This document shows, piece by piece, positions 18,786 through 56,836 of a stretch of DNA of 64,000 nt; positions within the stretch are counted from its first letter, which is position 1; every line of letters starts with the position of its first letter. The notes below the pieces were generated by a model that worked only from the letters and a program-made list of their open reading frames with translations, was not told the origin of the DNA and made no database searches. The stretch spans positions 672-64,671 of the forward strand of contig JAUCBJ010006790.1 in the NCBI GenBank assembly GCA_032718475.1, given 5' to 3'. Made by a program: the position numbers and the translations under genes. The stretch comes from Nemertoderma westbladi (taxonomy: Eukaryota; Animalia; Xenacoelomorpha).

Positions 18786-18830
18786 CTTCTACAATTGGAG
18801 GGAAACATTGTATGATTTCCCTTGGAGCGG

Positions 18831-25450: not shown

Positions 25451-27394
25451 ATGAGTGTCTCAGACAAGGAGGCACTAGAGGACAGCTATGAGACGGCGGC
25501 TGGACCGCCGACTGACGATAGCGTCAATATTACTGTTGACGACAATGCCGACTATGACGACGCAGCGAGTGACGCTGACGTAAGTGAACAGGAGGACGAG
25601 ACAGTGACTAGTGAGGAAGAACAGCAACCTCAAGTAATAGTATTAGGATCCCCTACCGCTACTGTAAGGAAGGACTGTACGGCAGCCCGGACAGAGGTGA
25701 GTGATAGGGAGGATAGTGTAGCAGAAGCGAGAGCCCGGAGCCCGGTTTCCAGACCTGTGGGTATGGTAAGTGCCGTGGTCCCAACGGCTGTAAGGAGTAC
25801 CCGTAGTTCCCGAAATAATCCTTCAAGTCCACCGAGTGTAAGTCAGGTAAGTGATAGAGAACTTGATATCGCGATAAAGAAGAAACTTCGCGCGCATGCC
25901 GGACATATAACTCGGACGGCGGACAAGGTAAGGAAAATGTTAGCTGACTCAGCGAACATCGGGAGGGTAGAGTTAGTAGAGGTTAGAAGAGGATATAATT
26001 CAGCGTTATTCAAGCAGACGGAGGAGCTTGCAGTCCTAGCAAAGAAGGCAGTAGAGTCTCAGTCGAGCGACGTAGCAACGAGGATTTACGACAGGGTTTT
26101 AGCAGCCTTGTTAGAGCACCGCGAGTTATCGGAGCGATTCCGACGAGTTAGGACGGAGAACTGGCTGCTATGGGCATCACAAGCGCAGGCGACTCAGGTG
26201 AGTGACGCTGAGTTGAGAGACTTAGTGGAGCGAGAAGAGATCCAAGATAAGGAAGAGCGCCGTTATCAGAGGGAAGTTACTAGCTGGCTGATGCAGAATG
26301 GAGTGGTTGTACCAGGCCAGGTGCTACCGACGACGGAGAACATTCAACAGAGGACGTTGACTCCACCCGACGATGCATCCAGAGACAGCGGCGATTCCCA
26401 GGTTAGTCACGCGCGAGGGAAAGTTATATGTGCTAGATCCCTTGTTTCTCACAACTCGGCGGAGGAGAGAAGACGCCGACTAGACGAACAGCAGGCGGAA
26501 GTTTTGCGTGCATCGGAAGCACGGAAGGAAGCTGAGCGGGAACGGGAGCGCGCACGTAAGTTAGACGCAAAGTTGCGGGAGTTGGAAGACAAAGGTAAGC
26601 GTGAGCAAGCGGAACGCGAACGAAAAGAACGCGAACTCCAACTGAAACGCGAACAGAAAGAACGCGAACTCCAACTTGAACGCGAACGCGAAGCGAAGAA
26701 ACGCGAACTCCAACTCGAACGCGATCAGGAAGCGAAGAAACGCGAACTCCAACTCGAACGCGAACAGAAAGAACACGAACTCGAACTTGAACGCGAACGC
26801 AAGGAACGCGAACTCGAGATTGAGAAGGAGCGACAGATGTTGTATGAAGAAAAGGCGCGACTGGAAGAAGAGAGCGTAGCGAGACGAGTGAGGGAAGAAG
26901 AAGAACGTAAACTGGCGCAGTTGGAAAGTGCGAGATTAAGTTTAGAGAGCGAAGAACGGACTAGGAAGGCGAACGAAATCGCCGAGAAGGGGATGCGAAT
27001 GATCGAAGAATGTGGGGCGAGTGTAGGGACAGAGTTGCGAGAACTGTTCGCACTGCAGAAGGCCGAACAGGAAGCGAGAACTCCGGCTATACGCGAGTCG
27101 ACGACGACCAGAATTCCTATACCCGGTCCAGCTATTACGAGTACACGGATCGCTAAACCGTTCTCTACATATCGCACGCCAGTTGGTATTAGTGCTTCAC
27201 CTATCGCGCAGGATCTACGTCATCGGAACACCGCACCACTATACACCGAACGAGAGAATGAAGAGTTTAGAGAAACTCCGACGGGACGAGTACTTGGCGA
27301 ACCGCCAAGTTTGGTTTGCGCGGTTGAACTTAGCGAACGCTATTTCGAACGCATTGGACATCTTGAGGACGGTGAATCTACCTCATCATGGTGA
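25451..27394 (+). CDS. gag: BEL/Pao Gag N-terminal part (acidic and long coiled-coil region)
   Basis: Long ORF upstream of the knuckles and pol. E/R/K-rich repeats (RELQLERE) at ~26600-26830. Confidence 0.75.
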   Translation: MSVSDKEALEDSYETAAGPPTDDSVNITVDDNADYDDAASDADVSEQEDETVTSEEEQQPQVIVLGSPTATVRKDCTAARTEVSDREDSVAEARARSPVSRPVGMVSAVVPTAVRSTRSSRNNPSSPPSVSQVSDRELDIAIKKKLRAHAGHITRTADKVRKMLADSANIGRVELVEVRRGYNSALFKQTEELAVLAKKAVESQSSDVATRIYDRVLAALLEHRELSERFRRVRTENWLLWASQAQATQVSDAELRDLVEREEIQDKEERRYQREVTSWLMQNGVVVPGQVLPTTENIQQRTLTPPDDASRDSGDSQVSHARGKVICARSLVSHNSAEERRRRLDEQQAEVLRASEARKEAERERERARKLDAKLRELEDKGKREQAERERKERELQLKREQKERELQLEREREAKKRELQLERDQEAKKRELQLEREQKEHELELERERKERELEIEKERQMLYEEKARLEEESVARRVREEEERKLAQLESARLSLESEERTRKANEIAEKGMRMIEECGASVGTELRELFALQKAEQEARTPAIRESTTTRIPIPGPAITSTRIAKPFSTYRTPVGISASPIAQDLRHRNTAPLYTERENEEFRETPTGRVLGEPPSLVCAVELSERYFERIGHLEDGESTSSW

Positions 27395-30300
27395 TCACGC
27401 CGAAGTTTTGAAAAGCGTAATAAGACGTCTAAACATGCGTTACAGACAGAAATGGCGCAAATTAGAGAATAAGTTGGAGGGCCAAGGTAAAGTATTGACA
27501 CTTCAGCATATTCATGACATGATAGCCACAGACGCAGTAGCAGAGATGAAATCAAACTTCTCAGAAGAGAATATGAGGGAGTCTAAACCTGTTACCGGTA
27601 AGTCTATGGTAAGTTTTGACGATGACAGGACCACTGTGACATTTAACTCAGTAGACAGATATAATTCGAGTACCCCAGCCTTTAGATCAGACTCGCGAGT
27701 ATGGTCAGGTGAGTGGTTAGATAGACCTAGGTTAAAGCAACAGGAGTTGCCGGATGGATTTGTAGGTTGCCAATACTGTTTACTAAAGGAGGTAAGATCT
27801 GACGACCATAAGTTAGATAGTTGCAGACGGTTCAAAGAATTAAATTCGGAACAGAGAAGAGTTCAAGTGCGGACGTTGGACACCTGTTGGGCATGTCTTG
27901 CGCCAGGCCATGTAAGGCGGCAGTGCCCGAACAGCAAGGACGGATGCATGGAATGCGGCAGACTACATCACAAGTTGCTACATGCGGATTTCCATACCCC
28001 AACGGACCGTTACTTACAGCGAAATCCTCAAAGGAAGGGGAGCAAAGAACCCGTATCGATAAGGAGGAATACGTACACTGGCATCCAAGACGATGGTTAC
28101 CAACCAGGTTCGTCGGATGAGGATGGCGAGTCGAGCGCAAGAGAGGTGACCTGCCAAGGTTTCACCGCGGATAGTTCATCAACCAGCGCGCGGACGTATT
28201 TATCATCGGCCACGTCGGAAATATTTAGCGTGATTCCGGTGAAACTCACTGGAGATAAGGGATCGAAACGAATATATGTGATGTTGGACACTGCGTCCAC
28301 ATTATCTTATATCGACGAGGAAGTGGCGAGAGCTGTTTCTAGCTTCCAGAACGCTGAGGAGATCCAAATAGAGTTGAAGTCTATGCATGGGGTAGGAGAC
28401 CTCAAGGGACACAGAATTTCGGTAGAACTAGACTCCCTACTTCCGAGAGACCAACATACTCGACAAGAACAGAAAGCTTTGCCATTGGACGGATTTAAGT
28501 GTCTAGCTATGAAGGGATTCGGCAGGCAGTTAGGTAAGGTGCCGCCGATGAGTCCCATAGCACAGGAGTATTTTGACAAGCTCAGGATACCCAGACACCA
28601 GGTAGGTTATAGGAATGTTTCTATGTTGATTGGTGCAGAACAGCTGATCGCACACCAGATATGGGAAACGAGACCAGCTGAGCCGCATGTCAATGGACCA
28701 CATGCCCATAGGACCATACTAGGTTGGTATACACGAGTACCCATGTCTTATGAGTTTACAGGTGGCGACAAGCCAATGAACAGATACGATGAATTACAGC
28801 CTATAATTCAACCACCGTTAGTAGAACCACCAGACATAGACGAGTTTAGGAGAACCTGTATTGACCACTATAGTGACTTTAGCGAGTCAGACGAGGAGTT
28901 GATTCCCGATAATGTTAGGTTGTCGGAACCACTTCATAATGACCGGACAGATAGTGAACCCGAGGACTACTGTTATCAGACCCGTGGGTCTGGTTCAGCG
29001 GCCCACGCTACCTATTTGACTAACGTTTTGACTTATACAGACATAGTGGAGGGTCAAGTGGCTAAATATCGAGACCTAGACATTTTCCAATACAGTGAGG
29101 AGGAATTACAAAAGGAATTGATACGCCAGGACCTCGAGACAGGAGCTAGAACCGTCGAATGGCTGGATAGGGACGCAATGGAACCCGGTGGATATGACCT
29201 AGCCATGTCTACTGATGAGAAACGGTCGTTGGAGATGATGGAAGATACCATACGTCTACTACCGACTGGACATTTTGAAGTTGGAATGTTGTGGCGTCGA
29301 CAACCACCTAAGTTGGAGAACAACTACAACTTAGCCTTGAAAAGATTGAACGGAGTAAGGGCTCGGTTGTTGAAGAATCCGGACATTAGGGAGAAGTATT
29401 GCGCCCAGATCAACAACTATTTCGCCAAGGGATTTGCTGGGAAGGTAGAGGACCCTGACTTAGTGACAGACCAGACTTATTACCTTCCACACCACTATGT
29501 GACTCACCCTGACAAGCCAGACAAAGTCCGAGTAGTCAACGACTGCGCAGCAGTCTATAGAGGTATGTCCCTGAATTCAGAGTTGATGGATGGTCCCAAC
29601 CTGAACAATTATTTGATTGGAATACTGTTGCGTTTTAGACAGCGGCGATTCGCATTTACTTGTGACATCGAGGCGATGTTCCACCAGGTAAGAGCATGTA
29701 AGGCAGACCAGGATAGCCTTCGCTTTCTCTGGTTTGAGAATGAAGACTTATCCGGCCCAGTGGTTACATACCAGATGTACGTTAGGATATTTGGCGCCCG
29801 CGATAGTCCAAATGGCACGCTGTTCGTTTTAAAGAAAACGGCAACAGCCCAGATTGGTAAGTATCCAGTAGAAGTAATCGAGTCTATATTGAGAAACTTC
29901 TATATGGACGACGGATTGGTGTCCAAGGACACAGCGGAACAAGCCATAGAAGTGGCTCACGGCCTACAGGAGTGCTTGGCTACAGGGGGTTTTCCTCTAA
30001 CCAAGTTCACTACGAACTCGGAGGCCCTATTAGAGTCGTTCCCGGTAAAGGATCGCGGGAGCGGAGACATAGAATTGGGGGTAGAACCAATCCCCATGGC
30101 GCGAGTACTGGGACTCGCTTGGAACCCGAACTCAGATAAGTTCCAGGTAAGCGTTAGATTTGAGCCCAGTAGCCCAGACAAAGTTTTGACTAAGAGAATT
30201 TGCTTATCGACATTGAGTAGACTATTTGACCCGATGAACTTTATCAGTCCGGTTATATTACAGGCACGAGCGTGCATGAGGAAAATTTGGTTGTCCGACT

Positions 30301-31355
30301 TAGAGTGGGACGAACCAATATCTCCTATACATGCAAAGCAGTGGAGGGAGTGGGAAGCCGAGTTGCATCTATTGAAAAATATAGATGTACCCCGTTCCTA
30401 CTTTCCGAATCAGCTGGTATTCCCAGCTGATTTAGAGCTCCACCTATTTAGTGACGCAAGTGACACCGGCTTTGGTATGGTAGCCTACCTTCGCCGAGAG
30501 GTAAGTCAGGACAAGTTTGAGACGGCTTTTGTGACTTCTAGATCAAAGACAATGCCGGTCAAATACATGACTGTCCCTCGTGCAGAGTTACAGGCGGCTG
30601 TAGTTTCGGTCGAGGTAAGTAAGCAAATAACTGAGGAGTTAGACACGACATTGACCTTATTCTATTGGACGGACGCATCCTTGGTGTTAGTATACATTGC
30701 GGCCGACAATATTGCACTAAAGACATTTGTGGCCAATAGACGCGCTCAGATCGTTGATTTTTCGACGAAGGAACAATGGAGACATTGTCCGGGAGTGTTG
30801 AACCCGGCCGACATAACTTCGAGAGGTGCAATGCCGGCGGAATTCTGTCAGGAAGAGTCGCAGGAGTTTTGGTTGCATGGACCTGATTTTCTAACGAGGA
30901 CACAGGAACATTGGCCAGAGCGACTAAAGATTGTGACCAATCCGATGCCTGAAGATGCAGAAGTCAAGGTGGAGAAAGTCTCTAAGTCGAAGTCTAAAGC
31001 CAAACTCAAGTCATTGGAGCGGCCTGAAAAGTCATTGGAGCGGCCTGAAGAGTCATTGGAGCGGCCTGAAGAGTCATTGGAGCGGCCCGGAGACCTGTCA
31101 GACCAACAGACTTACGTGACTACTAGGTCAGGAAGGGTAAGTTACGACGTAAAACCACCCTTACAGACTAGACGACAGTCACAGTTGGTAAGTGACGGAC
31201 AGAAAATGACCGACACAATGGATCCTTTGGTTTCCAAACCTGTGGGTTTTGATTCGAAACTTCCATTAGTTAGCGGACAACCGTCGCTGGCATTAGAGTC
31301 ATGCAGTATTTATGACAAATTACTAAATTCGTCTGCCTCTTGGCTGACAATTTGA
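27183..31355 (+). CDS. pol: BEL/Pao Gag C-terminus, protease, RT and RNase H
   Basis: Knuckle CWACLAPGHVRRQC, protease VMLDTAST, RT YYLPHH / DIEAMFHQV / FYMDDGL, RNase H LHLFSDAS...PRAELQAA...FYWTDA. Confidence 0.95.
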   Translation: MVLVLHLSRRIYVIGTPHHYTPNERMKSLEKLRRDEYLANRQVWFARLNLANAISNALDILRTVNLPHHGDHAEVLKSVIRRLNMRYRQKWRKLENKLEGQGKVLTLQHIHDMIATDAVAEMKSNFSEENMRESKPVTGKSMVSFDDDRTTVTFNSVDRYNSSTPAFRSDSRVWSGEWLDRPRLKQQELPDGFVGCQYCLLKEVRSDDHKLDSCRRFKELNSEQRRVQVRTLDTCWACLAPGHVRRQCPNSKDGCMECGRLHHKLLHADFHTPTDRYLQRNPQRKGSKEPVSIRRNTYTGIQDDGYQPGSSDEDGESSAREVTCQGFTADSSSTSARTYLSSATSEIFSVIPVKLTGDKGSKRIYVMLDTASTLSYIDEEVARAVSSFQNAEEIQIELKSMHGVGDLKGHRISVELDSLLPRDQHTRQEQKALPLDGFKCLAMKGFGRQLGKVPPMSPIAQEYFDKLRIPRHQVGYRNVSMLIGAEQLIAHQIWETRPAEPHVNGPHAHRTILGWYTRVPMSYEFTGGDKPMNRYDELQPIIQPPLVEPPDIDEFRRTCIDHYSDFSESDEELIPDNVRLSEPLHNDRTDSEPEDYCYQTRGSGSAAHATYLTNVLTYTDIVEGQVAKYRDLDIFQYSEEELQKELIRQDLETGARTVEWLDRDAMEPGGYDLAMSTDEKRSLEMMEDTIRLLPTGHFEVGMLWRRQPPKLENNYNLALKRLNGVRARLLKNPDIREKYCAQINNYFAKGFAGKVEDPDLVTDQTYYLPHHYVTHPDKPDKVRVVNDCAAVYRGMSLNSELMDGPNLNNYLIGILLRFRQRRFAFTCDIEAMFHQVRACKADQDSLRFLWFENEDLSGPVVTYQMYVRIFGARDSPNGTLFVLKKTATAQIGKYPVEVIESILRNFYMDDGLVSKDTAEQAIEVAHGLQECLATGGFPLTKFTTNSEALLESFPVKDRGSGDIELGVEPIPMARVLGLAWNPNSDKFQVSVRFEPSSPDKVLTKRICLSTLSRLFDPMNFISPVILQARACMRKIWLSDLEWDEPISPIHAKQWREWEAELHLLKNIDVPRSYFPNQLVFPADLELHLFSDASDTGFGMVAYLRREVSQDKFETAFVTSRSKTMPVKYMTVPRAELQAAVVSVEVSKQITEELDTTLTLFYWTDASLVLVYIAADNIALKTFVANRRAQIVDFSTKEQWRHCPGVLNPADITSRGAMPAEFCQEESQEFWLHGPDFLTRTQEHWPERLKIVTNPMPEDAEVKVEKVSKSKSKAKLKSLERPEKSLERPEESLERPEESLERPGDLSDQQTYVTTRSGRVSYDVKPPLQTRRQSQLVSDGQKMTDTMDPLVSKPVGFDSKLPLVSGQPSLALESCSIYDKLLNSSASWLTI
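31008..31088 (+). repeat. in-frame 21-bp tandem repeat (SLERPEE x ~4) in pol
   Basis: AGTCATTGGAGCGGCCTGAA tandem copies. Confidence 0.9.
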
Positions 31356-31415
31356 AAAAGAACTGCGTGGTTAAGCCGATACGTTTCGTACCTTTGTTTA
31401 AAACATTCGAAACAT

Positions 31416-32897
31416 TTGAGAGAACCATTGAGCACCAATAGTGAGCGAATTCGGAAATTGAAACAACCTCTGACAGAGGATGAGATTGATCAAGCGGAAT
31501 TAAAGCATTTGAAACATTATCAAATGTGTGCCTTCCCGAAAGAATTCCATCTATTATCGGCTCATCGACCAGTTCTCTATAAACCCCTTAGAAAATGGAG
31601 TCCATTAATCCATAAGGATTTAATTTGTCATAGATCGAGAATCCAGACTGTCGACATAAACTCACAGTTTCGGTTCCCAGTGATAATCCCTAGTCACCCA
31701 ATAGAATTGCAAAGAGCGATTCTATGGGATATACATAAGAGGTTGCATCACGCGGGAAAGTTACACTGTTTGTCGGCAGCGAGACAGCGATTCATTCTAT
31801 TGCAGCCAAGCAGGGCAGTTGGCACTATGTACGACGCCTGTCTGGTTTGCAAGAGAGTGAACGCCAGAGTATTGGAACAGGAGATGGCTGAACTCCCGGA
31901 AGCGAGAGTGCAGGCATATGACCCACCCTTTACGAATACAGGGGTGGACTGTTTTGGTCCGATTGAAGCAAAGAGTGGACGGCTGACCCACAAGCGATGG
32001 GGTCTGCTACTGACATGTATGGCGAGTAGAGCCATACATATCGAGCGTGTGGCAGACATGTCGACCAAATCTCTGCTCCTGGCCTTAAAGAGATTTATGG
32101 CCAGGAGAGGACTAGTAAAGGCGTTCTACTCTGACAAGGGTACAAACTTTGTCGGAGGGAATAGCGAGTTGAACGCGGCTCATAAAGCAGCACAGAATAA
32201 GGAAATTTCTGCAGCACTTTTGCCGCAACGAGTAGAATGGAGATTCAATACTCCTGAAAGTCCTTGGAGAGGAGGAAGTTGGGAGCGTTTAGTTCGCTCT
32301 GTAAAACAGGCCATTGCCAAAACATTGCCTGTGAACAAACAACTTACCGACGACGAACTGGTCACAGCTTTCATTGAAATCGAGCATACCCTAAACTCGA
32401 GGCCGATAGCTATGTTGCCAGACGGTGTTGCATTAACGCCGAATCATTTGCTAATGCAGAGTCCAGCATTTCTTGTGCCGGCATCAGAACCCATTAGTGC
32501 CGACCTATATAGTCGTAAAAGCTGGAAAGTAACACAGTTTGTGGCGTACACATTCTGGGAATATTGGCGGGAATACTATCTTCCCACCATATCCACCAGA
32601 ACAAAGTGGTACAAAACGGTTCGGAGTCTCCAAAAGGGAGATTACGTGTTGATAACCGAACCCATTGTCAAGAGAAAGTATTGGGAGACGGGAGTGATCT
32701 TGCACACACACCCAGACGTGCAAAACATAGTGCGCACAGTCACTGTGAAAATTAGATGCAAGTGTCCGCACCCAAAAAAGTGTAAAACTAATGGTTTACA
32801 CACCTTGGACCGACCGGTCCAAGATATTGTGTTATTAGAGGAGACACGTATCGAGACGGGAGATTATAATTTGTCTCCTGCCTCAAAACAGAGTTAG
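31416..32897 (+). CDS. BEL/Pao integrase (same frame as pol, behind a single TGA)
   Basis: HHCC (IHKRLHHAG...CLVC), GVDCFGP, YSDKGTNF, GGSWERLV, LTPNHLL and the C-terminal RPVQDIVLL motif. Confidence 0.93.
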   Translation: MREPLSTNSERIRKLKQPLTEDEIDQAELKHLKHYQMCAFPKEFHLLSAHRPVLYKPLRKWSPLIHKDLICHRSRIQTVDINSQFRFPVIIPSHPIELQRAILWDIHKRLHHAGKLHCLSAARQRFILLQPSRAVGTMYDACLVCKRVNARVLEQEMAELPEARVQAYDPPFTNTGVDCFGPIEAKSGRLTHKRWGLLLTCMASRAIHIERVADMSTKSLLLALKRFMARRGLVKAFYSDKGTNFVGGNSELNAAHKAAQNKEISAALLPQRVEWRFNTPESPWRGGSWERLVRSVKQAIAKTLPVNKQLTDDELVTAFIEIEHTLNSRPIAMLPDGVALTPNHLLMQSPAFLVPASEPISADLYSRKSWKVTQFVAYTFWEYWREYYLPTISTRTKWYKTVRSLQKGDYVLITEPIVKRKYWETGVILHTHPDVQNIVRTVTVKIRCKCPHPKKCKTNGLHTLDRPVQDIVLLEETRIETGDYNLSPASKQS

Positions 32898-33667
32898 TGC
32901 TGGACGCAACTCACTTCGTATGCATTCCTCGTATGCAAATACAAGGAAATGCATAGGAGCGGGGTTGTGGTGATTTGCGTTGAGTTTTGTCTGGTGGGTA
33001 TCAAAACAAAATTTTATTTTCAAAATTTTTGGAAAATTAGAAAATTTTAAAAAATTAAAAGTGAACCCAAGACAATTCCAGACGCTGTGTATAGACGCGT
33101 TTTAGAATTCGTCTATAGATAAACAGTAATTTGAAAAGTCGTGAAGCCTGGAAAATAGCATTTAGAAACCATGGTGACGGCTATATTACGTAGGAGTGTA
33201 AATTGAGTCTAGCAACTTCCACAGATTGGTGCCAACAGTGCAACTAAGGTGCTAAAGGTTAGTAGCACCAGAGGCGTACATGGACCCCACTCAGTAGTTT
33301 GCAGGATGTGTGATGTTCGATTATCAAACCTGTGGGTTTGGTATAGTCGAGTATTGTGGCTATAGTCCTTTCTAACTACTGTAGTTTAGTACGAGTAATG
33401 GGAGTAGTTTGGGCATCAAAAAGTGAGTTGGTCACGGCCAGTTTATCTCCAAAGTTTTTGCGCTATGCATGGGAATAGGTTAGAGGATAGTTAGTTAGGA
33501 AGAGACGGGATCTAGAGAGTCGAACCTGAACTGCTGGAAGGCGGGGGGGGGGGGGGGGGGTTCGGGAGGTCTGTCCTTCGGCGACATCTAACTGATTTAC
33601 CCACAGTGTAGTTGGTTACGTAACGGCACTTATTGGGATATATATATATGTATATACGCGTAACATA

Positions 33668-36600
33668 ATGGAGAGGGATATTAGAGCGCAACCGCGCAGA
33701 GGATTTACTGCCAGAGAGGAGGCGGAGCTACCATTCGCGCGACCAGGATGTAAAGACTCTAACGTTTACTACCATGGGCGGTCCGTGATGGAGCTGAACG
33801 GGAAGTACAAACCAAGTTATGATAAAGAATTACGGAGAGAAAGAATGAGAGCGTTGGGGGACCGGATGGAAGTCTTGCGGAGAGAGTATCGCACGCGGTA
33901 TCCCTACGACTTCGCTTTGGACGTGTGCGACATTAGCGCAGATCCGGACGAGGAAATCGCACGACTATACCATATGAATATGTATTTACGACATGAGGAG
34001 CCTCTACCTGCAGTCCGAGACCAGTTCGACGGAATGCATCTGTATCGGAGGACTCGAGGTGAGGATCAGGAGACGCTGAAAGTCTTCAGCGTGTACAAGC
34101 TCTTCTACAAGTGTGGTGAATGCATGAATAAACAGGACGTGGCGATTCCCGACCGATTAGACGAGCAACATCCGGAACCGATATTAACGCGATGTCCAGC
34201 TCACCAATTCCTTAGATACAACGAGGGAGGTTACCCGATGAGCAACCCGATGATCAGTATCGACTTCAGCAGAAAGCGACCTCCGAGACTCATTACGCCG
34301 ACCATTACGACATTAGATCCGTATACGGAGATTAAACCCTGTTCGACACCCAGTTTGATAGAGACGGCAGCAGCCATTTCGCTGTACCGAGCCTACAAGG
34401 ATCTAGAGGCGCGGCGCGAAGCGGCGCGGGACTCGGGTACCAAACCCGCGGGTTTGGAGCTCTCGAGTCCCTGGACTACGTTTACTTCACCTCACCGAAT
34501 GAGAAGCCTCACGCCTGAGCATCAGGACGACATAGACGCGTTGCGGCAGGAGGAGCGAGCGGCGAAGGCGAAAGAGTTATTTGAGAACAGGATAGCGGAG
34601 TATAATAAGACCGCGGATAGACATCAAGAGGAGACGAGGAGAGTGACCGGATTTGTTCCACAGGTCGTATCTCAACCCGGACCGGTGTATTATTCCGACG
34701 GCACCGAACCTGCGATATTAGTAGATCATCCGGAGTCGCGAGAAGCGATACGATTCTTGCCGATGGTAAGAATGGCGGACCATTGGAACGTTGACTGTCT
34801 ACGGGAAGTTTTATGCGCGAAGTTCTTGCGTGATGTCCCAATGCAGATCACAGATTATGACACGTTGGATAAGATTGGAGCTCCGGGGAAGGAGAGTAAG
34901 CTATTCGGATGGTTGGATAAGTACATCAAGGTATGGGTCGCGGTGGCTACATTCCCAGACGACGAGGAGGTAGACCAGATGTGGCTGAGGAGGAAGGGTT
35001 CTTATACCCGATATGATGACCACAAGGCTATCGAGCGCATGTGGACCCCATCAGACGAGATTCAGCGTCAGTGGAGGAAGACGGAGGAATCGCTGCAGGA
35101 TTGGAGGGTGATGTTCTACGACAATGAAGGAGGGTCCCATCAGGAATGTTTGACCAGCAAGTGTATTCAAATTCGTGCGGCCGATGGTGTGACTCATGTG
35201 TTTATGCGTGTGAGGGCGGATCGAGAGAGACCGGAGCCCATCATAACGACACAATATCGGAAAGGGAAGGATCCTAGGGAACAGATTTTGGAGGTATGCA
35301 GGCGAGGAGGTATGCACGGAGCGGAGCGTATCGACGCCAGGATGTTACCAAAGAAAGTTAGAGAGGCTATTCTCAACCAAGATTACGTCAAGGTGGGATC
35401 GGGAGTCCAGAGCGATTTGGAGAGCGACTTCAACGCCATGACTGATCTGGAAGATAGATTGCCGAGACCGTTTGTCGACACCAAGCTATTGTTGCTATGG
35501 GCACAGGATATTGGAATTTATAGGGAGTATCCCAACTCTGCCAAGACTGGTATGGGCTTTATAGCACACTTGTTGTATAATTGGGACTTTAAGTTAAAGA
35601 CGCAAAAGAAGTATGAGGAGGCGTATGGCGAATACAACACTCCACCGGGAGCGGAGTTCAAATCCCACTTCAAGCGGCAAGCGTTAGTGTATTGGAACAT
35701 TTGCGCGCCACCCCGTGCGTCGCTACAATATTATTTGGTGCTTGAGTCGAACACGGTGACTTGTTTATTAGCGGATATCGTTGCGCGAGTTTTGAAGTGT
35801 CATCCATTGGTATTTGGAGGAGATCAATACGTTCGCTCGAAAGGGGGAATCCAATCCGACGTGATGAAGCGTTTCTTAACCCCGTTCTTCAACCAATCGT
35901 TAGAGAATACGTCGATGATTAGGAGAGGATTAGCGATATTCGAAGGAGTATATCGACAGAACATCGGAGATTTGGGAGACCGACCGTCGATGGAATATCC
36001 GACGCCAGAAGCTTTGGAGAAGTGGTTCGGGAATCAAACCCGCGGGTTTGGTACTCCCTTCCACTCGGAGGCTGATAGACCTGTTAAGGAGGGCTGGCCG
36101 GAAACGTTAGTAGAGGTGTTCGGAGTAGATCTTCCGGTGGAGAAGACATATCCGAAACGAACGCGGGAGGAAATATTGGAGATAGAGGACAAGGGCGAGG
36201 ATGTTTACTTTGTTCCGGATCGACAACCGTTGACTGGAGAGGACGACATCGTATTAGACATTGGGAAGGAAGGAAGTGCGAAACCGATTGGAGACCTCAT
36301 ATACGAGAGGGCCTGGTTTCCACAAGCGCGTAGGTGCAAGTTGTGCGGCAGCACAAGGCACAATCTAAAGTCGTGCGACGCGGTAGTGGAGGCGGCACAT
36401 AAAGTCTGTCGTTGGTGTAATGAGACCGACCATTCGTTTCACACGTGCACCGTCTTCATTTCTCAATGTGGATATTGTGGGGTAAAGGGACATCGTAGCG
36501 CGAGATGTCAGCTGCGAGATGATTCCTTTCAAAACCATAGCGCTAACCTACTTCGTGAGATGTTAGACAAGTGGGAGAGTGTGGCGGATTACCATATTCA

Positions 36601-37108
36601 AGCGCAGATGCGTTGGTTACCATTTAAAGCGGGATATGGGTTTTGGGCGGTAGACCCATCGCATGTTGCGTACGAGCCATATCTACAATCGCTACCACAA
36701 TATCAGGAGCTCATCCTAACTGCTCAAGACCTTCCACAAAACACTGGAGTTATCGTAGTTCGAGAGTACTTCAGACAATTGAACATGGACAATAAGTACA
36801 CATGGAACTTCGTTGCTATTTGCGATCGCATCACGAAGGGTGTATTTACGGAGACTAGAAAAGTGGTACGCGCGCGAGGTGATTGGAGGATGGCGGCTAT
36901 ACAATACCGCAACGAATTCTTGTTGACTCATGTGCCAGTGGGTTCATTGACCGCCGAGAGGATACAGGAACAAAGGATCGCAGCGACCACAGCGACGACC
37001 GCTGGAGCTCAAGGCTCGCGGAAAGAACCAGGAGGAGGGGTCCAAGACAAGCGTCAAGTCAAGGACGATCACTACCATTCGATACCTAAAGAGGTGAGGT
37101 CTCTATAG
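33668..37108 (+). CDS. accessory ORF3 of element B: CxxC..CxxH N-terminal domain, DEDDy-like 3'-5' exonuclease, 3 CCHC zinc knuckles
   Basis: Intact 1146-aa ORF between pol and the 3' LTR. FYDNEG, KVGSGVQSD, FVDTKLL and YYLVLES resemble ExoI-III of WRN/EXD/Mut-7 nucleases. Knuckles CKLCGSTRHNLKSC, CRWCNETDHSFHTC and CGYCGVKGHRSARC. Confidence 0.8.
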   Translation: MERDIRAQPRRGFTAREEAELPFARPGCKDSNVYYHGRSVMELNGKYKPSYDKELRRERMRALGDRMEVLRREYRTRYPYDFALDVCDISADPDEEIARLYHMNMYLRHEEPLPAVRDQFDGMHLYRRTRGEDQETLKVFSVYKLFYKCGECMNKQDVAIPDRLDEQHPEPILTRCPAHQFLRYNEGGYPMSNPMISIDFSRKRPPRLITPTITTLDPYTEIKPCSTPSLIETAAAISLYRAYKDLEARREAARDSGTKPAGLELSSPWTTFTSPHRMRSLTPEHQDDIDALRQEERAAKAKELFENRIAEYNKTADRHQEETRRVTGFVPQVVSQPGPVYYSDGTEPAILVDHPESREAIRFLPMVRMADHWNVDCLREVLCAKFLRDVPMQITDYDTLDKIGAPGKESKLFGWLDKYIKVWVAVATFPDDEEVDQMWLRRKGSYTRYDDHKAIERMWTPSDEIQRQWRKTEESLQDWRVMFYDNEGGSHQECLTSKCIQIRAADGVTHVFMRVRADRERPEPIITTQYRKGKDPREQILEVCRRGGMHGAERIDARMLPKKVREAILNQDYVKVGSGVQSDLESDFNAMTDLEDRLPRPFVDTKLLLLWAQDIGIYREYPNSAKTGMGFIAHLLYNWDFKLKTQKKYEEAYGEYNTPPGAEFKSHFKRQALVYWNICAPPRASLQYYLVLESNTVTCLLADIVARVLKCHPLVFGGDQYVRSKGGIQSDVMKRFLTPFFNQSLENTSMIRRGLAIFEGVYRQNIGDLGDRPSMEYPTPEALEKWFGNQTRGFGTPFHSEADRPVKEGWPETLVEVFGVDLPVEKTYPKRTREEILEIEDKGEDVYFVPDRQPLTGEDDIVLDIGKEGSAKPIGDLIYERAWFPQARRCKLCGSTRHNLKSCDAVVEAAHKVCRWCNETDHSFHTCTVFISQCGYCGVKGHRSARCQLRDDSFQNHSANLLREMLDKWESVADYHIQAQMRWLPFKAGYGFWAVDPSHVAYEPYLQSLPQYQELILTAQDLPQNTGVIVVREYFRQLNMDNKYTWNFVAICDRITKGVFTETRKVVRARGDWRMAAIQYRNEFLLTHVPVGSLTAERIQEQRIAATTATTAGAQGSRKEPGGGVQDKRQVKDDHYHSIPKEVRSL

Positions 37109-38517: not shown

Positions 38518-39010
38518 TACATTATAGCACAGGGCGACAGACTCTAGATATATACATCATCGTCGCTCTGATGTATGTTGTAGCATTTGGAAATCTTCGA
38601 CTAGACTCGTATACACTAGTTGAGCTATTTGAATTTATATTATGAAAGAGGCGAAGGAAGTGATTGGGGAGACAAACCTGCGGGTTTGGCTTACTCCTTT
38701 CACTTGCCCTATCAAATTTTTATATATTTGATTTTGTATGTAGTAATCATTATGTAGTAGAACGAAAGAGAAACAATATTTTGTAAATTTAATTTGTATG
38801 TAATAATCGTTAAACAGTGAGAGAGATAATATTTGTAAATTTAATTTGTATGTAATTCATTATGCAATATCTATAGCAATATTTGTAAATAGTAGGACCT
38901 ATAGTATCAAGTATTTAGATTGGTTGGAAGAAATTTATTTTGTTTTGTATACATCACCTTATACTCTTCTACAATTGGAGGGAAACATTGTATGATTTCC
39001 CTTGGAGCGG

Positions 39011-41204
39011 TGTTACGGTATATGGCGCTGTATCCATATTATTAGTCATCATGCAGTATGTAATATTAGTCCGTTATGCAGTATGCAATATTAGTCCGTT
39101 ATACTGTACGTAATATTAGTCCATTGTGCAGCATGATATTTTAGATAAGGCATAATAACGCAGTGGTATTTAGGTAGGGAAATCAAAACGCCCATATATT
39201 TGAAACCATCCATTTTGTATAGTATGTAGCCCTACCTACGTAATTTTGTATTAGGATATATGTAGATAGTTCCAGGGTAGCGAGTTTATTCGGACCCTGG
39301 ATTTTGTGCTTGCTGATATTAGTTTGATAGGGCTAGCATATAGGGACGCCGTCCTGGCCATTCAGCAGCCAGAGACGTGAACCATTACCATATATGGTAA
39401 TAATTTGAGCAATAGGGCTACAATCCGGCCTCCTTATTGGATTAACTGCTTCCAGGTTGGTCTAATGCTAGCATGGACTGGAGAGCCAATAGGAGAGCGA
39501 TTGAGTCACCCTATTGAATCATCCCATCCGGATCACCTATAAATTGGCGGTGTGCCGGTAGAGCCTATCAATCGATTCAACCTTCACTGCTGTTGTACTT
39601 GCTGAGCTGTCTCTATTCAATTTTGACGGATTTTAGAGTATTTTTGCAATTTGATTAATTTCTTGAAATGATTTGCTAGTGCGATTACTCTTGCTTGTGT
39701 TTCTCAATTAATTCCTTCGATTACTGCTAATTACAACTGAACTATGATTTCTACTTTTGATTAATGGTTCTATGTGATTCTTTCCTGCGCAATAATCCTA
39801 AGGGATTTCTGAGACTGTCAGACTTTGTGATTTGCATGCGCCGCTACGGTAGCTATTAGCGTAATGGAGGGCTAAGGCGCCAGCGGGCGGTGGGCACATC
39901 GGGGGGTTGGGCGACTAAGGGAGAGCGGAGGATTCAAAGCGAGCAACGCTGGCATGGGGTCACCGTTGCGGTCGGGAAGTTAACGCTGTGGTACGCAGAC
40001 CAATCGCCGGTACGGTAATTAGGGGGCTGATGATCCAGGTTTCGTCTCTATTTAGTATTAGGGGGGCAGGAATCAGGTTAGTTAGGAGTCCTATATGTAC
40101 CCGGGAGAGGCCTGCACGTATCATAACGTTTCGAACGTTGAGCGTGTAGTACGAATAGTGAGTCGCATAATTGTGGGCTATACAGTAGTTAACTGCATAA
40201 TTGCGAACTGTGATTGCTGACGCTGATTGGTGTGTTACTGAAGTGTGCCTATGATTGTGAATGTTTAGGTAGGCGCTCTTTTCTCTTTGATTGATTTCTA
40301 TTTCTTAGTTACAACAATTAGTTACTGATTAGGTCAAAGTAATACGGCAATTTAGGCTATTACTAGCGAAACCTGTTGCGTGATAAATTAGAATTACGTA
40401 TTCTGGAACTCTTAGTAATTAGTACGCTGTTAAATATTTGTGACTGTAATTGATTAGTAAAATTAAGAATTAGTACGCAGCATAGCGGAGAGTAGCTAAA
40501 GTAATAATTAAGAGTACTGTAAACTATTCGCGCTGAGCGGTTATTTGCATTAGCGGACAATCAGCTAGAACGCACTATTCGGTACGCACGAAACGCTAGT
40601 GATTTGCTGGCCTAAAGCCAGCTGCAGGCAATTTTAGACCCAGAGTGGTACTATCCACGAGAGACAATTACTGTACCATTTTTGATATTTTAAATATTCT
40701 CGCATTCACACATTACGTTAGAGAAACCCCCAGTATTCGCGATTAGAAAAGACGTAGGTAATAGCGTGCTTTAATAGTGATAGAATTAGGCGTAAGAATA
40801 CTCTGAGTGCAAGGCCTCTCGCACTCGTCTTAAGTAAGCTTAGGGAGCCGACTCGGGTTTATTGTTTTGGTTATTCCTGCGTGGCTCATAGATTCGAACA
40901 GTTAGCTCTCTATTGAGCAATCGGTAGAGAAAGGAACAAGCGATTTTGCAGGAGTTGTGTAAAATTAGTAAATATATTAGCGGACGGCAGATTAGCGCCA
41001 TCCAACGGTAAGTAGCGGTTTTGTATTTAGCAACCTTTACAATTTAGTAATATCACGCTCCTGATCCCCTTTACTTAACAGTAGAGCAGTCTTTGTGTCT
41101 TATTGGTTAGGCGAGAGCTCATTAGGTTGGCAGAAGGATATTAACGGGTATTGGTCTGTTCAACAGTTCTGCTGTTAGTATAGAGGTCGCGGTTGTTTAT
41201 CAGT
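39011..41204 (+). repeat. 3' LTR of element B (truncated)
   Basis: Follows PPT-like GGAGCGG and matches 18831-21024. Ends abruptly at the junction with the leader of A. Confidence 0.8.
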
Positions 41205-43408: not shown

Positions 43409-44361
43409 GTAATGGTGGACAATTCAAGCATGGCCCTGAATCGCCTTAAAGGAATCCTGAAAAGGCTTAATACCCAACCTGACCTTAAGGACCAATATAA
43501 TGAAGTAATGGCTGGGTACTTAAAAAACGGATTGACAGAGTTGGTACCAGATGAAGAGATTAAAGGATCCTCCAGAACATACTACTTACCAACACACTAC
43601 GTGATAGAAAAGCGTAAGGCTGGTAAGATGAGAGTCGTTAATGACGCCACGGCCTCCTTCCAAGGTGAATCCCTACACAGCCAGTTATACACCGGACCAA
43701 ACATCTATAGCAACCTGGTTGGCGTATTGCTTAGATTCAGGCTCAGAACAAGGTGGCTTTTACATGCGACATCAAATCTATGTTTCATCAGGTACGCACA
43801 CTAGACAGAGACTCTGACAGCTTGCGGATACTATGGACCAACAAGACACTTAATATCTCAGAAATAAACAGCCTCACGCTGAATGATGTTGACATCTTAA
43901 TAATGGTGGTACGTATCTTCAGTGCAAAAGACTCGCCAGTCGTGTGCAGTGATATGATTAAGAAAACTGCGGATATGCTGGAAGATAAATATGATCCCAG
44001 TGAAATCAGTCGTCACGCCAACTGGAAGAAATCGCAAGCGTTGGCAGCACACTGGTGGAGGGTATGGTTGCACGAATTTCTGATAACACTCAGAACCCGC
44101 CGGAAATGGAATCACATTCACCGAATCATCGCGGTTGGAGATATGGTGCTTGTCAAAGATGAACTGAAAGATCGTGTTCATTGGCCTGTGGCGCGTGTTA
44201 CCAAGATTTTCCCCGGAAAAGTCGGTCTCACCCGCACCGTGATGATCCAAACATCAAAGGGCCACTACGATCGCCCGATCCAAGCTTTATGTTTACTAGA
44301 AGCAGTTTGTGATGACGTTGTAGAGTGCCCTGCCAAGGGCCACTACGATCACCCAATCTAA
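43409..44361 (+). pseudogene. BEL/Pao element H, 3' part: RT start fused by deletion to integrase C-terminus
   Basis: DNSSMALNRL, YYLPTHYV and DIKSMFHQV, then directly WWRVWLHEFL...RPIQALCLL. Confidence 0.85.
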
Positions 44362-51702: not shown

Positions 51703-53258
51703 TCACGTTGAGGAGTCCCTAGATGTTTGTTGGATTAAGGAGGTGGTCGTGGGAAGAGTATCTTGCCTTCCACAGTCTACGGACAGTTCTCGGTCTCTTT
51801 CCAGTAAACATAAACGACCAACTGGGCGATTGAGTTGTTGTGTTTCGAATACAATTCCAGGTTTCTTCTTCGTCCTAGAATAGTGATGATGGAAACACCA
51901 AGTCCGGCTTTTGGTGAGGAGATCAATTGTATTTTCCTCATCGTATGGCTGGTTAATATCGTCGTTATCTGAGGAGTATGGTGTTCCCTCAGTTGTGGTC
52001 TCTCCCTCACTGATTTCTTCTTCCCATTCACTCACCTGATGTACCTTTTCGTTAGGTAGTCTTTCCATGAGTGTTCTACGGGAAGGTCCAGCGAAGTACC
52101 AACCTACTCTCGTTCTTCCCGCATATGTTTGTAATGGTTGCGGTCGAGCAGGCCGTTTTTCTAATGTCTCTAGCGCCTCATGCGCATTTTGGCCGATCAA
52201 TATCTGTACCCCTGGGTAGTCGGTGTTGAATCTAGGGATATCATGCTGCTGGGTAAAATGGTCTTCATCCCAGTTGTAAGGTTCCACTTGGCTGGTAGCA
52301 AAGTTCTTTATCGCCACCATTTTTACTGACCTTATACTATGTTCGCCTAGTTCATCCTGGGGAGTGGACAACGCGCCTACATAGTAGTCTGTAGCTACTG
52401 TGGATTTCCAAACCTGCATAATTCCTGAAAGGTTCAACTTAGTTCGGAACTTGGGTTGTCCAGCAAAGATGTCTTCGGCTAGTTCTTTGTCGATGAATGT
52501 ACCTGTGCTGCCGGAGTCAAGGAGGGCGTTTACTATTAAACTTTTCCCTAGCCCGTGGACTCTCAGCTGCACTACAGGGAATTCCCGGAGTCCGACGTTG
52601 GAAGCCGGCGCTTTCCAAGATGGTTGCTGGTCCGGACTAGTCAGTTGTGCTTCCTTATCGGTATCAGTCTCATACGTAAGTGCTCGATACACTGCAGTGT
52701 TTATCATATGACAGGATTCGTTTTCGTCAGAGAATTCGTCCGTGTAGAATCCTTCCATCTCAGAGCTGTGGTCAGTGTCGTTCACATCACTGAATTGGAC
52801 ATGTAGTTCGGGCTCACTTACCTGACTCGTGCGGGTTCTTTCAAATTCTGTGTGCAGCAAGATATGATGTTTCGCGCCGCACTTAGCACACCTCGCACCT
52901 GAATAACAGGTCCGCCGTTGGTGTCCTTGTCTGAGACAATTATAACACAACCGCTTATCCCACATGACATTACGTCTATCCTTTAGGGATTTCTTCAAGA
53001 ATTCATCACATCCACTTAAACGATGGGGCCCGTCGCACAATGCACATTTGGGTTTGATGTTACTTACTTTAACTTGTGTTGTGTTGTGCACCCTTGTTCT
53101 TTCTTTGGGCTTTCTTCCATGAATTCTCTTAGGAGACGTAGGAGGAGTTGTTACCTGTTCTCTCCTGTCACTGGTTATATATTCTATCTTCTGTTCTCTC
53201 CTGTCACTGGTTCGAGACTTAGATTTACTTACGTCTTTCCTCGGTTTATTGACATAAT
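51703..53258 (-). pseudogene. C gag knuckles and protease fused to integrase C-terminal remnant
   Basis: CYNCLRQGHQRRTC, ALLDSGST, RTRVGWY, then RPVGRLCLLE. Confidence 0.88.
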
Positions 53259-53487
53259 TAAATAAATTGGAGATCACCTTTAATTACAGTTGCAACAGCT
53301 CATCTCCAATTTATTTAATTAATATCACCTGGCAGCAATACTCGAGCTGAATATTTATTTATTTGTACTTCCCTCCTGTTTCACTCTAGCATACTTGAGG
53401 CCGTTAGGTCCACTGTTAGAGATAGAATATATGCAACTTAAGACTGCCCGTTCAATAGAAGTGGATTAGGTGGGACTGTGAGTGTCA

Positions 53488-53588
53488 GGGGCTAGTGGCT
53501 GAGCTGGTTAGCGCTACTGATGAGGCCTGTTAGGCCGAAACGTACGTATAGCGCTGGTTCAACCCCCGGTGACGCGCTCTCATTTTTT
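53488..53588 (+). promoter_or_regulatory. tRNA-type internal Pol III promoter and T6 terminator (repeated per monomer)
   Basis: A box TGGCTGAGCTGG (53496-53507), B box GGTTCAACCCC (53556-53566) and TTTTTT (53583-53588). Confidence 0.7.
53510..53555 (+). ncRNA. type I hammerhead ribozyme, copy 1
   Basis: Stem I AGCGCTA/TAGCGCT, core CTGATGA, stem II GGCCT/AGGCC, GAAA, palindromic stem III ACGTACGT. Cleavage predicted after GUA (53548). Confidence 0.92.
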
Positions 53589-53850
53589 CCACTTCTGAAC
53601 AAACCCATTATATTACACCTTTAATTACAGTTGCAACAGCTCATCTCCAATTTATTTAATTAATATCACCTGGCAGCAATACTCGAGCTGAATATTTATT
53701 TATTTGTACTTCCCTCCTGTTTCACTCTAGCATACTTGAGGCCGTTAGGTCCGCTGTTAGAGATAGAATATATGCAACTTAAGACAGCCCATTCAATAGA
53801 AGTGGATTAGGTGGGACTGTGAGTGTCAGGGGCTAGTGGCTGAGCTGGTT

Positions 53851-53896
53851 AGCGCTACTGATGAGGCCTGTTAGGCCGAAACGTACGTATAGCGCT
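53851..53896 (+). ncRNA. type I hammerhead ribozyme, copy 2
   Basis: Identical to copy 1. Confidence 0.92.
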
Positions 53897-54190
53897 GGTT
53901 CAACCCCGGTGACGCGCTCTCATTTTTTCCACTTCTGAACAAACCCATTATATTACACCTTTAATTACAGTTGCAACAGCTCATCTCCCATTTATTTAAT
54001 TAATATCACCTGGCAGCAATACTCGAGCTGAATATTTATTTATTTGTACTTCCCTCCTGTTTCACTCTAGCATACTTGAGGCCGTTAGGTCCGCTGTTAG
54101 AGATAGAATATATGCAACTTAAGACTGCCCGTTCAATAGAAGTGGATTAGGTGGGACTGTGAGTGTCAGGGGCTAGTGGCTGAGCTGGTT

Positions 54191-54236
54191 TGCGCTACTG
54201 ATGAGGCCTGTTAGGCCGAAACGTACGTATAGCGCT
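54191..54236 (+). ncRNA. type I hammerhead ribozyme, copy 3
   Basis: Core intact; the terminal stem I pair is lost (A>T). Confidence 0.88.
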
Positions 54237-54531
54237 GGTTCAACCCCCGGTGACGCGCTCTCATTTTTTCCACTTCTGAACAAACCCATTATATTACACC
54301 TTTAATTACAGTTGCAACAGCTCATCTCCAATTTATTTAATTAATATCACCTGGCAGCAATACTCGAGCTGAATATTTATTTATTTGTACTTCCCTCCTG
54401 TTTCACTCTAGCATACTTGAGGCCGTTAGGTCCGCTGTTAGAGATAGAATATATGCAACTTAAGACTGCCTGTTCAATAGAAGTGGATTAGGTGGGACTG
54501 TGAGTGTCAGGGGCTAGTGGCTGAGCTGGTT

Positions 54532-54577
54532 AGCGCTACTGATGAGGCCTGTTAGGCCGTAACGTACGTATAGCGCT
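54532..54577 (+). ncRNA. hammerhead copy 4, probably inactive
   Basis: Core GAAA changed to GTAA. Confidence 0.75.
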
Positions 54578-54638
54578 GGTTCAACCCCCGGTGACGCGCT
54601 CTCTACTATTCTTCTGAACAAACCCATTATATTACACC

Positions 54639-56703
54639 TATTGACATAATAAGATCTTTCGGTGTCCTTACTGCTGTTTTCATCGTAGGACGTCGTCTGA
54701 CTCCCACAATCCGTATAACACACTGGTGTTACCTCTCTCCTAGTAACGGGTTTTTCACTTACCTTACTTTCAGGAGTCTTCTCTCTAGACTGTTTTAGGA
54801 GTTGTAATCTTACCTCTCTGTTTAAGAATGATAGAAGGTCCATCATGGTTGGATCTCTATGTTGTTGGTCCATCAAATAGAGAACCTTTTTGTCCCAGCG
54901 AGTACCTACTCCATCCTTTGGCAAAGTTGATGCTAAGGCTCCTACAACCATAGAATTCTGGTATTCATGAGACTTACCCAACCAGTCTAACTGTCTACAG
55001 ATCTCCTGAATCTCGTCGGAAAACTCTATAATCCCGCTGCTAAGAAACTTTCGGGGCGCCATTAATTTCGCATATAAATACCTAGCTATGTTAGTCCTAT
55101 TACCATACCTGATGTTTAGTGTATCCCAAACTTGTCTTAATCCATCTGGATGTCCAATAAACTTTAACGCCATTAACTTGGGAGGTCCTTCCAAGCACTC
55201 GATGAGGAATCTAAGTTTCTCTCCGTTGGATAGTACAGAGTTCTGTATGTTATCTTTGTAATATTCATTAAAAGGTAACCATTTCATCTCATCTCCATTG
55301 AACTTGACGATCTCTCCCACCTTTACCGCTTGACTGGCTTCAGTTCTAGCCATTTGACGCGTAAAACTTTCTTGGGCCATCGTATTATTTAATATCGAGT
55401 TATCAGTATATAAATTTCTCGGATTAGGATCAGGTCTATATGGAATATCATTATCAACAGGTTTATAATTACCCTTAATAGGGTTCACTATAGGAGTTTC
55501 TACTTCACTAGCAGTATAGATGCGTGTAGGCTCCACACCTTGCGCATGAAATACTTCAGACCTAACAGGTTGACACATTGTTACAGGGGGTGGTGGTATA
55601 CCCTTTTGTATATTTACCAATTTATCGCGTTCTAACGCGATACTCTGCTGCACTTCTTGCAACTCTAACCTACCCTCTCTTACTGTTCCCTTTAACTGCT
55701 GAACAGTCCCCTCCAACTCTCGGACCTGTTGGGAGGAATGTACATGATGTTCCCCATCTGCCCGAGCAGGAGATCCATCACCCGCCGTCGCTCATCCACC
55801 CACTCTACCGCCGAAGCGGGAGCCACCAACATAGTAGCGGGTAGACGAGGGACGACGGGCGACAAATCGTTGATGTCTTGCTCGGCGTCCAGGACCGGTA
55901 TTGATTCAGGGGCTGCTCTACTGGGCACAGGTAGTTTAGTACTGTGCAAAGGGAATTTAGAGTTAAGTTCTGGAAGTACAGGGGTCTCTATTTACAGAGG
56001 GGGTGACTTCGAAAACAGGCCTAATTATTTCAGGCTCATCTACTATAGTAGGGAGTCTGTCTACTCTAATAATTTGGTCTGTGGGTTCATGATTACCTAA
56101 GTCTACACTAGCCAGTTGCCTTCTCACCGCAGGAGGTAAATTAGGTAACTTCTGACGGTGTGGCGTTCTTCTACGTCCGCTTGAACGAGATTTATTACCT
56201 CTACCTTCGGGATCTGTTGTATCACCTTCATCGGAGGAGGCAAATCCCTGTCTTCTGGGAGTAGATCGACTCAGTAACTGCATCTGAGTAGCTGTCCTTT
56301 GTTTCTTCAAATAATCTTGTTTCGCCTGAAGGTTTTCCAGCTCTTGTTGGGTAGTCGCTTCAGGCGCCTTCCGTTCTGCTTCAGCCACTGCCGCTTTCCT
56401 TTCAGCCTCTGCTGCTGCCGCTTTTCTATCAGCCGCTGCCGCTTTCCTTTCAGATTCTGCCGCGGCCGCTGACCTTCGGTCTTCTATTTGCCGTTTCTTT
56501 AATTGTTCCTCTTGTTCCATTGCCATGAGGATGCCATGACGGTGCTGTACTAGCCTAGGGTCTGACACTACTACTGTAGGGATGACCTTTCTTACAGTAG
56601 GATGGGACTTGGACTTCGGTCTCAGATATTCTATACTTCTATCTGATTCACAGACTGTTCTTTCTAGGAGACTATCTGACAGTGTTTGCTTTGTGTCAGC
56701 CAT
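54639..56703 (-). pseudogene. gag: C gag N-terminal and capsid-like (DUF1759-type) region, frameshifted
   Basis: KFNGDEMKWLPFNEYY...KLRFLIECLEG...LNIRYG. Three ORF pieces: 56703-55963, 55949-55692 and 55716-54639. Confidence 0.85.
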
Positions 56704-56836
56704 GATTTATTTTACAGTTGAATGCCTACTACTATAACGACAGTTAAAGTAAGTCTAGTAATTCAGCATCAACTGCAAGCCTAGTGATTAATTACCGATA
56801 CCGTTACTCAGTGTAACGCGATATATTAATATATTA

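Follow-up and report, generated by a model that had tools for sequence, protein, structure and literature searches.

The four-copy tandem array described here is probably a non-LTR retrozyme that carries a hammerhead ribozyme between A and B boxes of tRNA type and is spread by a Penelope-type enzyme, with self-cleavage and transcription as predictions. The idea of a SINE/retrozyme hybrid is already known from SM-alpha; what differs in the present case is the placement of the ribozyme inside the promoter. The array lies in a 64-kb stretch of DNA, referred to as the window, and all coordinates are positions in that stretch.

Results

A mobile array of 341-bp units

The repeat has a period of 341 bp, its copies match each other at 98% of positions, and its G+C content is about 44%. 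It is framed by a duplication of the target site and by a short inverted piece of its own unit, and it interrupts the gag region of another mobile element:

53275–54638, forward strand: tandem array, 4.0 units of 340–341 bp (tandem-repeat analysis)
53247–53258, forward strand: left copy of the 12-bp target-site duplication, sole flank-to-flank direct repeat of at least 7 bp
54639–54650, forward strand: right copy of the same 12-bp target-site duplication
53255–53274, reverse strand: 20-nt inverted unit piece, reverse complement of 53302–53321
51703–56706, reverse strand: BEL/Pao-type gag region interrupted by the array, with DUF1759, CCHC motifs and a weak aspartyl protease match

The outer 4 nt of the inverted piece overlap the target duplication. 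To the right of the array the interrupted element is recognized by DUF1759 (E 1.5e-13) and to its left by the weak match to an aspartyl protease (E 0.005). In contigs from public sequencing runs the empty site was found, in which the left repeat is followed directly by the sequence that lies beyond the right repeat (11 contigs in run X1, 10 contigs in run X3). Taken together, the empty-site contigs, the target duplication and the inverted piece identify the array as a mobile insertion, and the original prediction of a mobile array with four copies of about 341 bp was borne out. The interrupted BEL/Pao-type element is itself multi-copy, with empty sites in public contigs.

Other copies of the family have opposite-strand joints at 53298 and 53311 (among the best 15 of 53 joints), where inverted material from one region of the unit is attached to start points that vary between copies. 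The forward array described here starts (53275) and ends (54638) within 5 nt of the same unit phase, possibly by chance, and differs in this respect from the other copies with their varied start points. The inverted piece ends 42 nt past the phase of the array's right end. Penelope-like insertions carry inverted 5' copies and a tail of 30–40 bp (PMC8557442), and the array combines tandem insertion, an inverted 5' copy and a tail-sized offset in the same manner.

Further mobile elements were observed elsewhere in the window, and the elements taken together point to an invertebrate animal as the probable host. A second BEL/Pao element occupies 27027–32897 (+) and 43735–44361 (+) and has matches to Peptidase_A17, an integrase zinc domain and DUF5641, and a non-LTR retrotransposon remnant at 6998–7801 (+) matches RVT_1 and DUF6451. 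An open frame of 1,170 residues (33596–37108, +), which matches nothing in Pfam at E 0.01 and has two CCHC-type motifs near its end, is bracketed by direct repeats of 2,240 bp (18785–21024 and 38965–41204, 99.9% alike); the sequence of these paired repeats suggests one young LTR element of 22 kb with extra genes. The frame at 22299–23738 (+) matches both DUF3504 and phage integrase, a pairing that we take to indicate a Crypton-type tyrosine recombinase transposon.

Hammerhead motifs in the array

The core pattern CTGATGA-N5-30-GAAAC has three matches within the window, all of them inside the array, against a mean of 0.30 by chance; three matches were reached in 1 of 100 shuffles. A loose hammerhead match at 48767 lies outside the array. 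Each unit contributes one motif:

53510–53555, forward strand: type I hammerhead motif of copy 1 (core pattern and pairing), predicted cut after 53548
53851–53896, forward strand: type I hammerhead motif of copy 2, predicted cut after 53889
54191–54236, forward strand: type I hammerhead motif of copy 3 with a substitution at the first base of helix I, predicted cut after 54229
54532–54577, forward strand: hammerhead of copy 4, GTAA replacing core GAAA, likely inactive

Each of the three matches has a helix I of 7 bp (in copy 1, 53510–53516 paired with 53549–53555), a helix II of 4–5 bp and a helix III of 2 bp within the self-complementary ACGUACGU; GUA precedes the predicted cut. Both the core pattern and the modelled pairing agree with the cut position proposed originally, after 53548. 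The two strands of helix I (53509–53516 and 53549–53555) are copies of one palindrome, so that helix I, like helix III, can pair between any two copies.

Rfam models, proposed earlier as a check on the ribozyme, gave no match at gathering score in the array's DNA. In E-value mode Hammerhead_3 alone was reported, with E 0.6 and 19.2 bits as compared to a gathering score of 48.5. Identification of the ribozyme therefore relies on its core pattern and its pairing.

The claim that every monomer contains the complete set of elements applies to copies 1–3; in copy 4 the core reads GTAA in place of GAAA (54560), owing to which its ribozyme is likely inactive, and the T run described below is lost. 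Copy 3 has an intact core, but the first base of its helix I is changed (54191), which qualifies the claim of a complete hammerhead per monomer in this copy also. Copy 4, the 3'-most unit, carries four clustered substitutions and a 3-nt deletion at 54600–54615, in addition to the core change at 54560, and it is this deletion that removes the T run.

tRNA-derived boxes and a candidate terminator

The ribozyme is enclosed by elements derived from a tRNA gene and followed by a run of six T residues (T6), listed here for copy 1:

53489–53514, forward strand: tRNA-derived 5' part, about positions 1–25, with the A box at 53496–53507 (motif common to tRNA genes)
53556–53566, forward strand: B box or T-loop-like motif (consensus match; variation in four runs as given below)
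53583–53588, forward strand: T6, candidate Pol III terminator, sole run of at least four T per unit

The A box is found in all four copies (53496, 53837, 54177 and 54518), as is the B box (53556, 53897, 54237 and 54578), with 48 nt between the boxes of a unit; T6 is present in three of the four (53583, 53923 and 54264). When the unit was shuffled with its dinucleotides preserved, an A box and a B box 25–70 nt apart, by the box consensus, occurred in 3 of 20,000 sequences. A degenerate motif of 20 nt (53495–53514), with two two-fold positions and two free positions that were picked after the sequence had been seen, gave 119 matches in viral contigs, 113 of which are tRNA genes according to ARAGORN; at both free positions the element is unlike nearly all of the matching tRNAs. 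Shuffles and motif thus uphold the proposal that tRNA-derived A and B boxes surround the ribozyme. By eye, the UUC bulge after helix I also exists in Schistosoma hammerheads, and part of the evidence for the B box is therefore confounded.

In the tRNAs sharing this motif, GGTTAGCGC corresponds to G18-G19-U-U-A21-G22-C23-G24-C25, and helix I accordingly begins at A21. In this register the whole anticodon arm and the variable loop are replaced, instead of the ribozyme sitting exactly at the anticodon loop as first proposed. It had also been proposed that the AGC/GCU pairs of stem I are at the same time D-arm and T-arm bases; helix I does use bases of both arms, but the register of the D arm differs.

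A tRNA gene with an intron was rejected as a candidate: ARAGORN at default settings, with or without introns, reports no gene in the array, an acceptor stem is lacking, and the D and T arms are unpaired in the predicted ensemble. With introns and a lowered threshold, ARAGORN returns a tRNA-like gene in one copy at 90% and in four at 80%; at a threshold of 70% it also reports noise on the minus strand. The Rfam tRNA model gave no match up to E 10.

T6 normally stops Pol III. Since it lies 34 nt beyond the predicted cut, Pol III would end before the full unit, and plain transcripts would be about 100 nt long. That a unit contains at most one run of four T is weak evidence alone, as 19% of 5,000 shuffles have this property too.

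Predicted folds of short and long RNAs

In the ensemble of the 100-nt unit, helix I pairs have probabilities of 0.66–0.99, compared with 0.00 for the D arm and 0.01 for the T arm; a fold forced to contain both tRNA arms is about 4.9 kcal/mol less favourable. With these values, and with no acceptor stem, the earlier proposal that a tRNA-like fold competes with the ribozyme was not supported. In the model, the two tRNA-like halves, each together with about 30 nt on its outer side, pair instead as a rod that extends helix I:

53457–53596, forward strand: predicted rod extending helix I in copy 1 (z -3.2; 1 of 200 shuffles)

This z-score applies to a region that was selected after the fold had been seen. 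The outer arms of the rod (53457–53465 and 53588–53596) form a perfect inverted repeat of 9 bp outside the tRNA-like unit. Within the rod, GGUU of the A box pairs with AACC of the B box at a probability of about 0.65, and T6 itself is paired. Given that the boxes pair with each other and that the rod arms lie outside the Pol III unit, the boxes may be conserved for the sake of RNA structure rather than as a promoter. The position of the rod arms also makes it likely that the long RNA is the selected one, and indicates no more than that. The fold of the whole circle is no more stable than those of shuffled sequences (z -0.04).

A single ribozyme is predicted to form helix III with a probability of 0.02. 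For two ribozymes of 46 nt the double hammerhead is the lowest-energy form (-42.4 kcal/mol as compared to twice -13.9 kcal/mol), and two 100-nt RNAs are likewise predicted to adopt it (-73.2 versus -62.2 kcal/mol). An RNA of 440 nt that begins with the tRNA-like part of copy 1 and ends with T6 of copy 2 folds into the double hammerhead unforced, with a helix III between the copies at probabilities of 0.83–0.91. The self-complementary ACGUACGU, the instability of helix III in the single ribozyme and the predicted double form are consistent with the original assignment of the palindromic stem III to the type that cleaves as a dimer. Canonical type I motifs of animals need dimers (PMC4209133), and the architecture of the array agrees with this.

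Variation across the family

A 151-nt core of the unit was compared with the contigs of four of seven public runs, one of which may be the source sample. The contigs on this core numbered 926, 712 and 51 in three DNA-type runs and 1 in the fourth (X4), figures that are not copy numbers; 393 of the 926 are less than 95% alike. Among the runs listed as carrying the array, none is entered as an RNA run, a blank with no bearing on expression. Variants were tabulated for contigs of at least 80% identity, among the best-supported rows (in one table the best 40 of 108), so that the tables are biased to similar copies and under-report divergence. At least 17 substitutions in the 151-nt core reach 2% or more in at least one run, and the common variants among the rows listed are structure-neutral. 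They include changes in loop II (48–82% of depth), replacement of a G-C pair by a G-U wobble in helix II (13–37% of depth), a G-to-A transition at the A-box purine position 53503 (39–92%), and a G-U-compatible change of the palindrome that leaves it self-pairing (2–10%; -8.8 versus -9.8 kcal/mol). In the B box no variant of 2% or more was present among the rows listed for the four runs. Two changes of the ribozyme core, at 5% and 8%, occurred in the smallest DNA run only.

Substitutions, indels and loose ends were found on both sides of the 151-nt core, T6 is kept in the loose-end consensus of three runs, and summed contig depth, which is not a copy number, is higher over boxes and ribozyme than over the flanks. 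The pattern that would speak against the original prediction, boxes varying while flanks are kept, was absent from the four public runs. On the evidence of these contigs, the array is part of a large family of variant copies that keep both boxes and the ribozyme pairing. A loose-end consensus of low agreement at 53457–53490 and 53571–53596 hints at another subfamily with compatible changes in both rod arms.

X4, a run whose RNA nature is only a guess and which bears another organism label, holds one contig of 371 nt that closes on itself (341 + 30). This contig is no evidence of a circle, because a tandem DNA array gives the same result.

Pattern searches in other collections, none of which covers animals systematically, gave the following. 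The A box combined with the core was found at no fewer than 118 metagenome loci (57 of 64 parts of the collection), none of them with both helices; the exact family pattern had no match in prokaryote genomes, and the core combined with the B box had none in viral contigs, and none of these results is a measure of rarity.

Discussion

Comparison with known elements

Non-LTR retrozymes are tandem non-coding units of 150–450 bp with a type I hammerhead (PMC7229834; bioRxiv 10.64898/2026.07.22.740005). The array likewise consists of a non-coding repeat of 341 bp and lacks LTR features; the core is intact in the consecutive copies 1–3, the G+C content of 43.7% is below 50%, the duplication of 12 bp exceeds 4 bp, and multiple genomic copies are indicated by 926 and 712 contigs, which do not count them. 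It differs from these retrozymes by the tRNA-derived A and B boxes and T6: retrozymes have been described as promoterless (PMC7761336), and a term search of the accessible text of the two papers on non-LTR retrozymes (PMC7229834; bioRxiv 10.64898/2026.07.22.740005) found no mention of a Pol III or tRNA-like part.

A second group of related design comprises SM-alpha, Sj-alpha and the related W-elements of Schistosoma, which combine tRNA-type Pol III boxes with a type I hammerhead in a unit of about 335 bp and likewise need tandem copies for propagation (PMC6765202, PMC2770079, PMC8490949). SM-alpha has been described as a tRNA-Gln-like SINE (PMC2770079) in which a Pol III promoter is combined with the hammerhead, the promoter coming first (PMC6765202). 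In the one SM-alpha unit that we inspected by eye (PMC8490949), the core (unit position 90) comes after the A box, a tRNA-like body that is intact and the B box (41–51), whose end is about 39 nt away from it, and no T4 run was seen. The array would work in the manner of SM-alpha but does not share this layout, as the boxes enclose its core and cut and are followed by T6.

With Penelope-like elements the array shares tandem insertion, the inverted 5' piece, the tail-sized offset and a short palindromic helix III (PMC8557442, PMC4209133), but it has no reading frame and its hammerhead is canonical, not minimal.

Two further kinds of construct invite comparison. SINEs derived from tRNAs are non-coding, have A and B boxes and duplicate their target; the array differs from them in that the head stands in the middle of the unit and is followed by a terminator, and in that no A-rich tail occurs at the insertion. 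In engineered ribozyme-in-tRNA cassettes, a hammerhead between the A and B boxes cuts a target in trans; these are man-made, whereas the array is natural, mobile and predicted to cut itself. In the full-text literature searched, a naturally occurring hammerhead enclosed by A and B boxes was not found; most subscription papers, the original SM-alpha papers, repeat databases and bioRxiv supplements lie outside its coverage, and an earlier description may exist.

A proposed life cycle

Known retrozymes are cut by their ribozymes, closed by tRNA ligase and copied by rolling reverse transcription (PMC7229834). For the array, we propose that Pol III would start near 53489, would occasionally pass one T6 and would stop at the next, yielding an RNA of 440 nt. 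This two-unit RNA would form the double hammerhead via its palindromic helix III, and two cuts would divide it into pieces of 60, 341 and 40 nt. By analogy with known retrozymes, the released 341-nt unit should have 5'-OH and cyclic-phosphate ends, it would be closed by the host tRNA ligase, and the circle would be copied several times round into a new site by a Penelope-like reverse transcriptase. The bulk of the Pol III output would be RNAs of about 100 nt, which could pair as dimer partners. With the cut between the boxes, the linear unit has its B box first and its A box last, and a usable promoter therefore arises solely in tandem or circle-derived DNA. An RNA of about 100 nt cannot template a 341-nt unit, so that either a single Pol III read-through or host transcription supplies the long RNA; we give Pol III read-through an even chance against host read-through.

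Alternative readings

An ordinary retrozyme transcribed by read-through from host promoters, in which the boxes were left over from the capture of a tRNA or SINE head and now only build a long helix I, is unlikely, though less so than the other alternatives. It would account for a rod that extends past the tRNA-like unit on both sides, for A-box and B-box bases that pair with each other and for the pairing of T6 within the rod, and it fits the description of animal retrozymes as promoterless (PMC7761336). It sits less well with a tRNA-like start, two boxes and a T run in the correct order and spacing, with the common A-box variant that stays within the purine consensus and with the conservation of unpaired box positions; that no other T4 run occurs in the unit weighs little, for the reason given above. 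If the unit were, conversely, mainly a short Pol III gene whose RNAs of about 100 nt form dimers and cleave either themselves or, in trans, long transcripts, with the array as a passenger, retention of T6 across three runs and the predicted double hammerhead of two 100-nt RNAs would be expected. We consider this improbable, as such an RNA cannot template the 341-nt unit and conserved-looking pairing extends outside it.

A switch between tRNA-like and ribozyme folds that regulates cleavage was suggested by the use of D-arm and T-arm bases in helix I and by the tRNA-like genes that ARAGORN reports with introns at 90% (one copy) and 80% (four copies). Arm probabilities of 0.00 and 0.01, the penalty of 4.9 kcal/mol, the missing acceptor stem, D-stem positions 12–13 that differ from the tRNAs sharing the motif, and the minus-strand noise of ARAGORN at 70% render it very unlikely. 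A local satellite that carries ribozyme and boxes by chance would explain why neither Rfam nor ARAGORN gives a result at standard thresholds; its formation by unequal crossing-over is excluded by the existence of empty sites, and with the target duplication, the inversion, hundreds of variant contigs and structure-neutral variation also against it, this reading has next to no probability. The mobile retrozyme with its hammerhead between the boxes is thus the reading that we prefer.

Origin of the ribozyme

A more speculative extension, which we regard as improbable, holds that a tRNA itself became the ribozyme: helix II and core GAAA would correspond to the anticodon arm of a tRNA-Asn(GUU)-like molecule and the base next to it, made catalytic by two short insertions, and the unit would be a terminator-gated Pol III retrozyme in which abundant 100-nt RNAs serve as dimer partners and rare read-through leads to the circle. 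Eukaryote-type tRNA-Asn was the best match to the middle of the unit among 102 tRNAs. Its score was equalled by 244 of 20,000 random helices for tRNA-Asn alone and by 406 of 1,500 when compared with the best of 89 tRNA middles, and with the common GAU loop variant the match to tRNA-Asn is lost (7,139 of 20,000). Identity of helix II with the tRNA-Asn anticodon arm thus has no significance after multiple comparison and can serve as a lead at most; the loop of helix II also resembles the hammerhead loop consensus of Rfam.

Implications

The layout of the array, with a cut inside the promoter and a terminator behind it, is unusual. Animal retrozymes have been described as promoterless, and in SM-alpha, the single case with Pol III boxes, the promoter is separate from the ribozyme. 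In the widespread family proposed here, a cut that splits the promoter would tie transcription to tandem or circle-derived copies. Its terminator leads to a sharp prediction, namely RNAs of 100 nt and 440 nt, the latter cut to 60, 341 and 40 nt. If true, the origin from a tRNA scaffold would provide a natural and dated example of a hammerhead that arose out of a different RNA gene.
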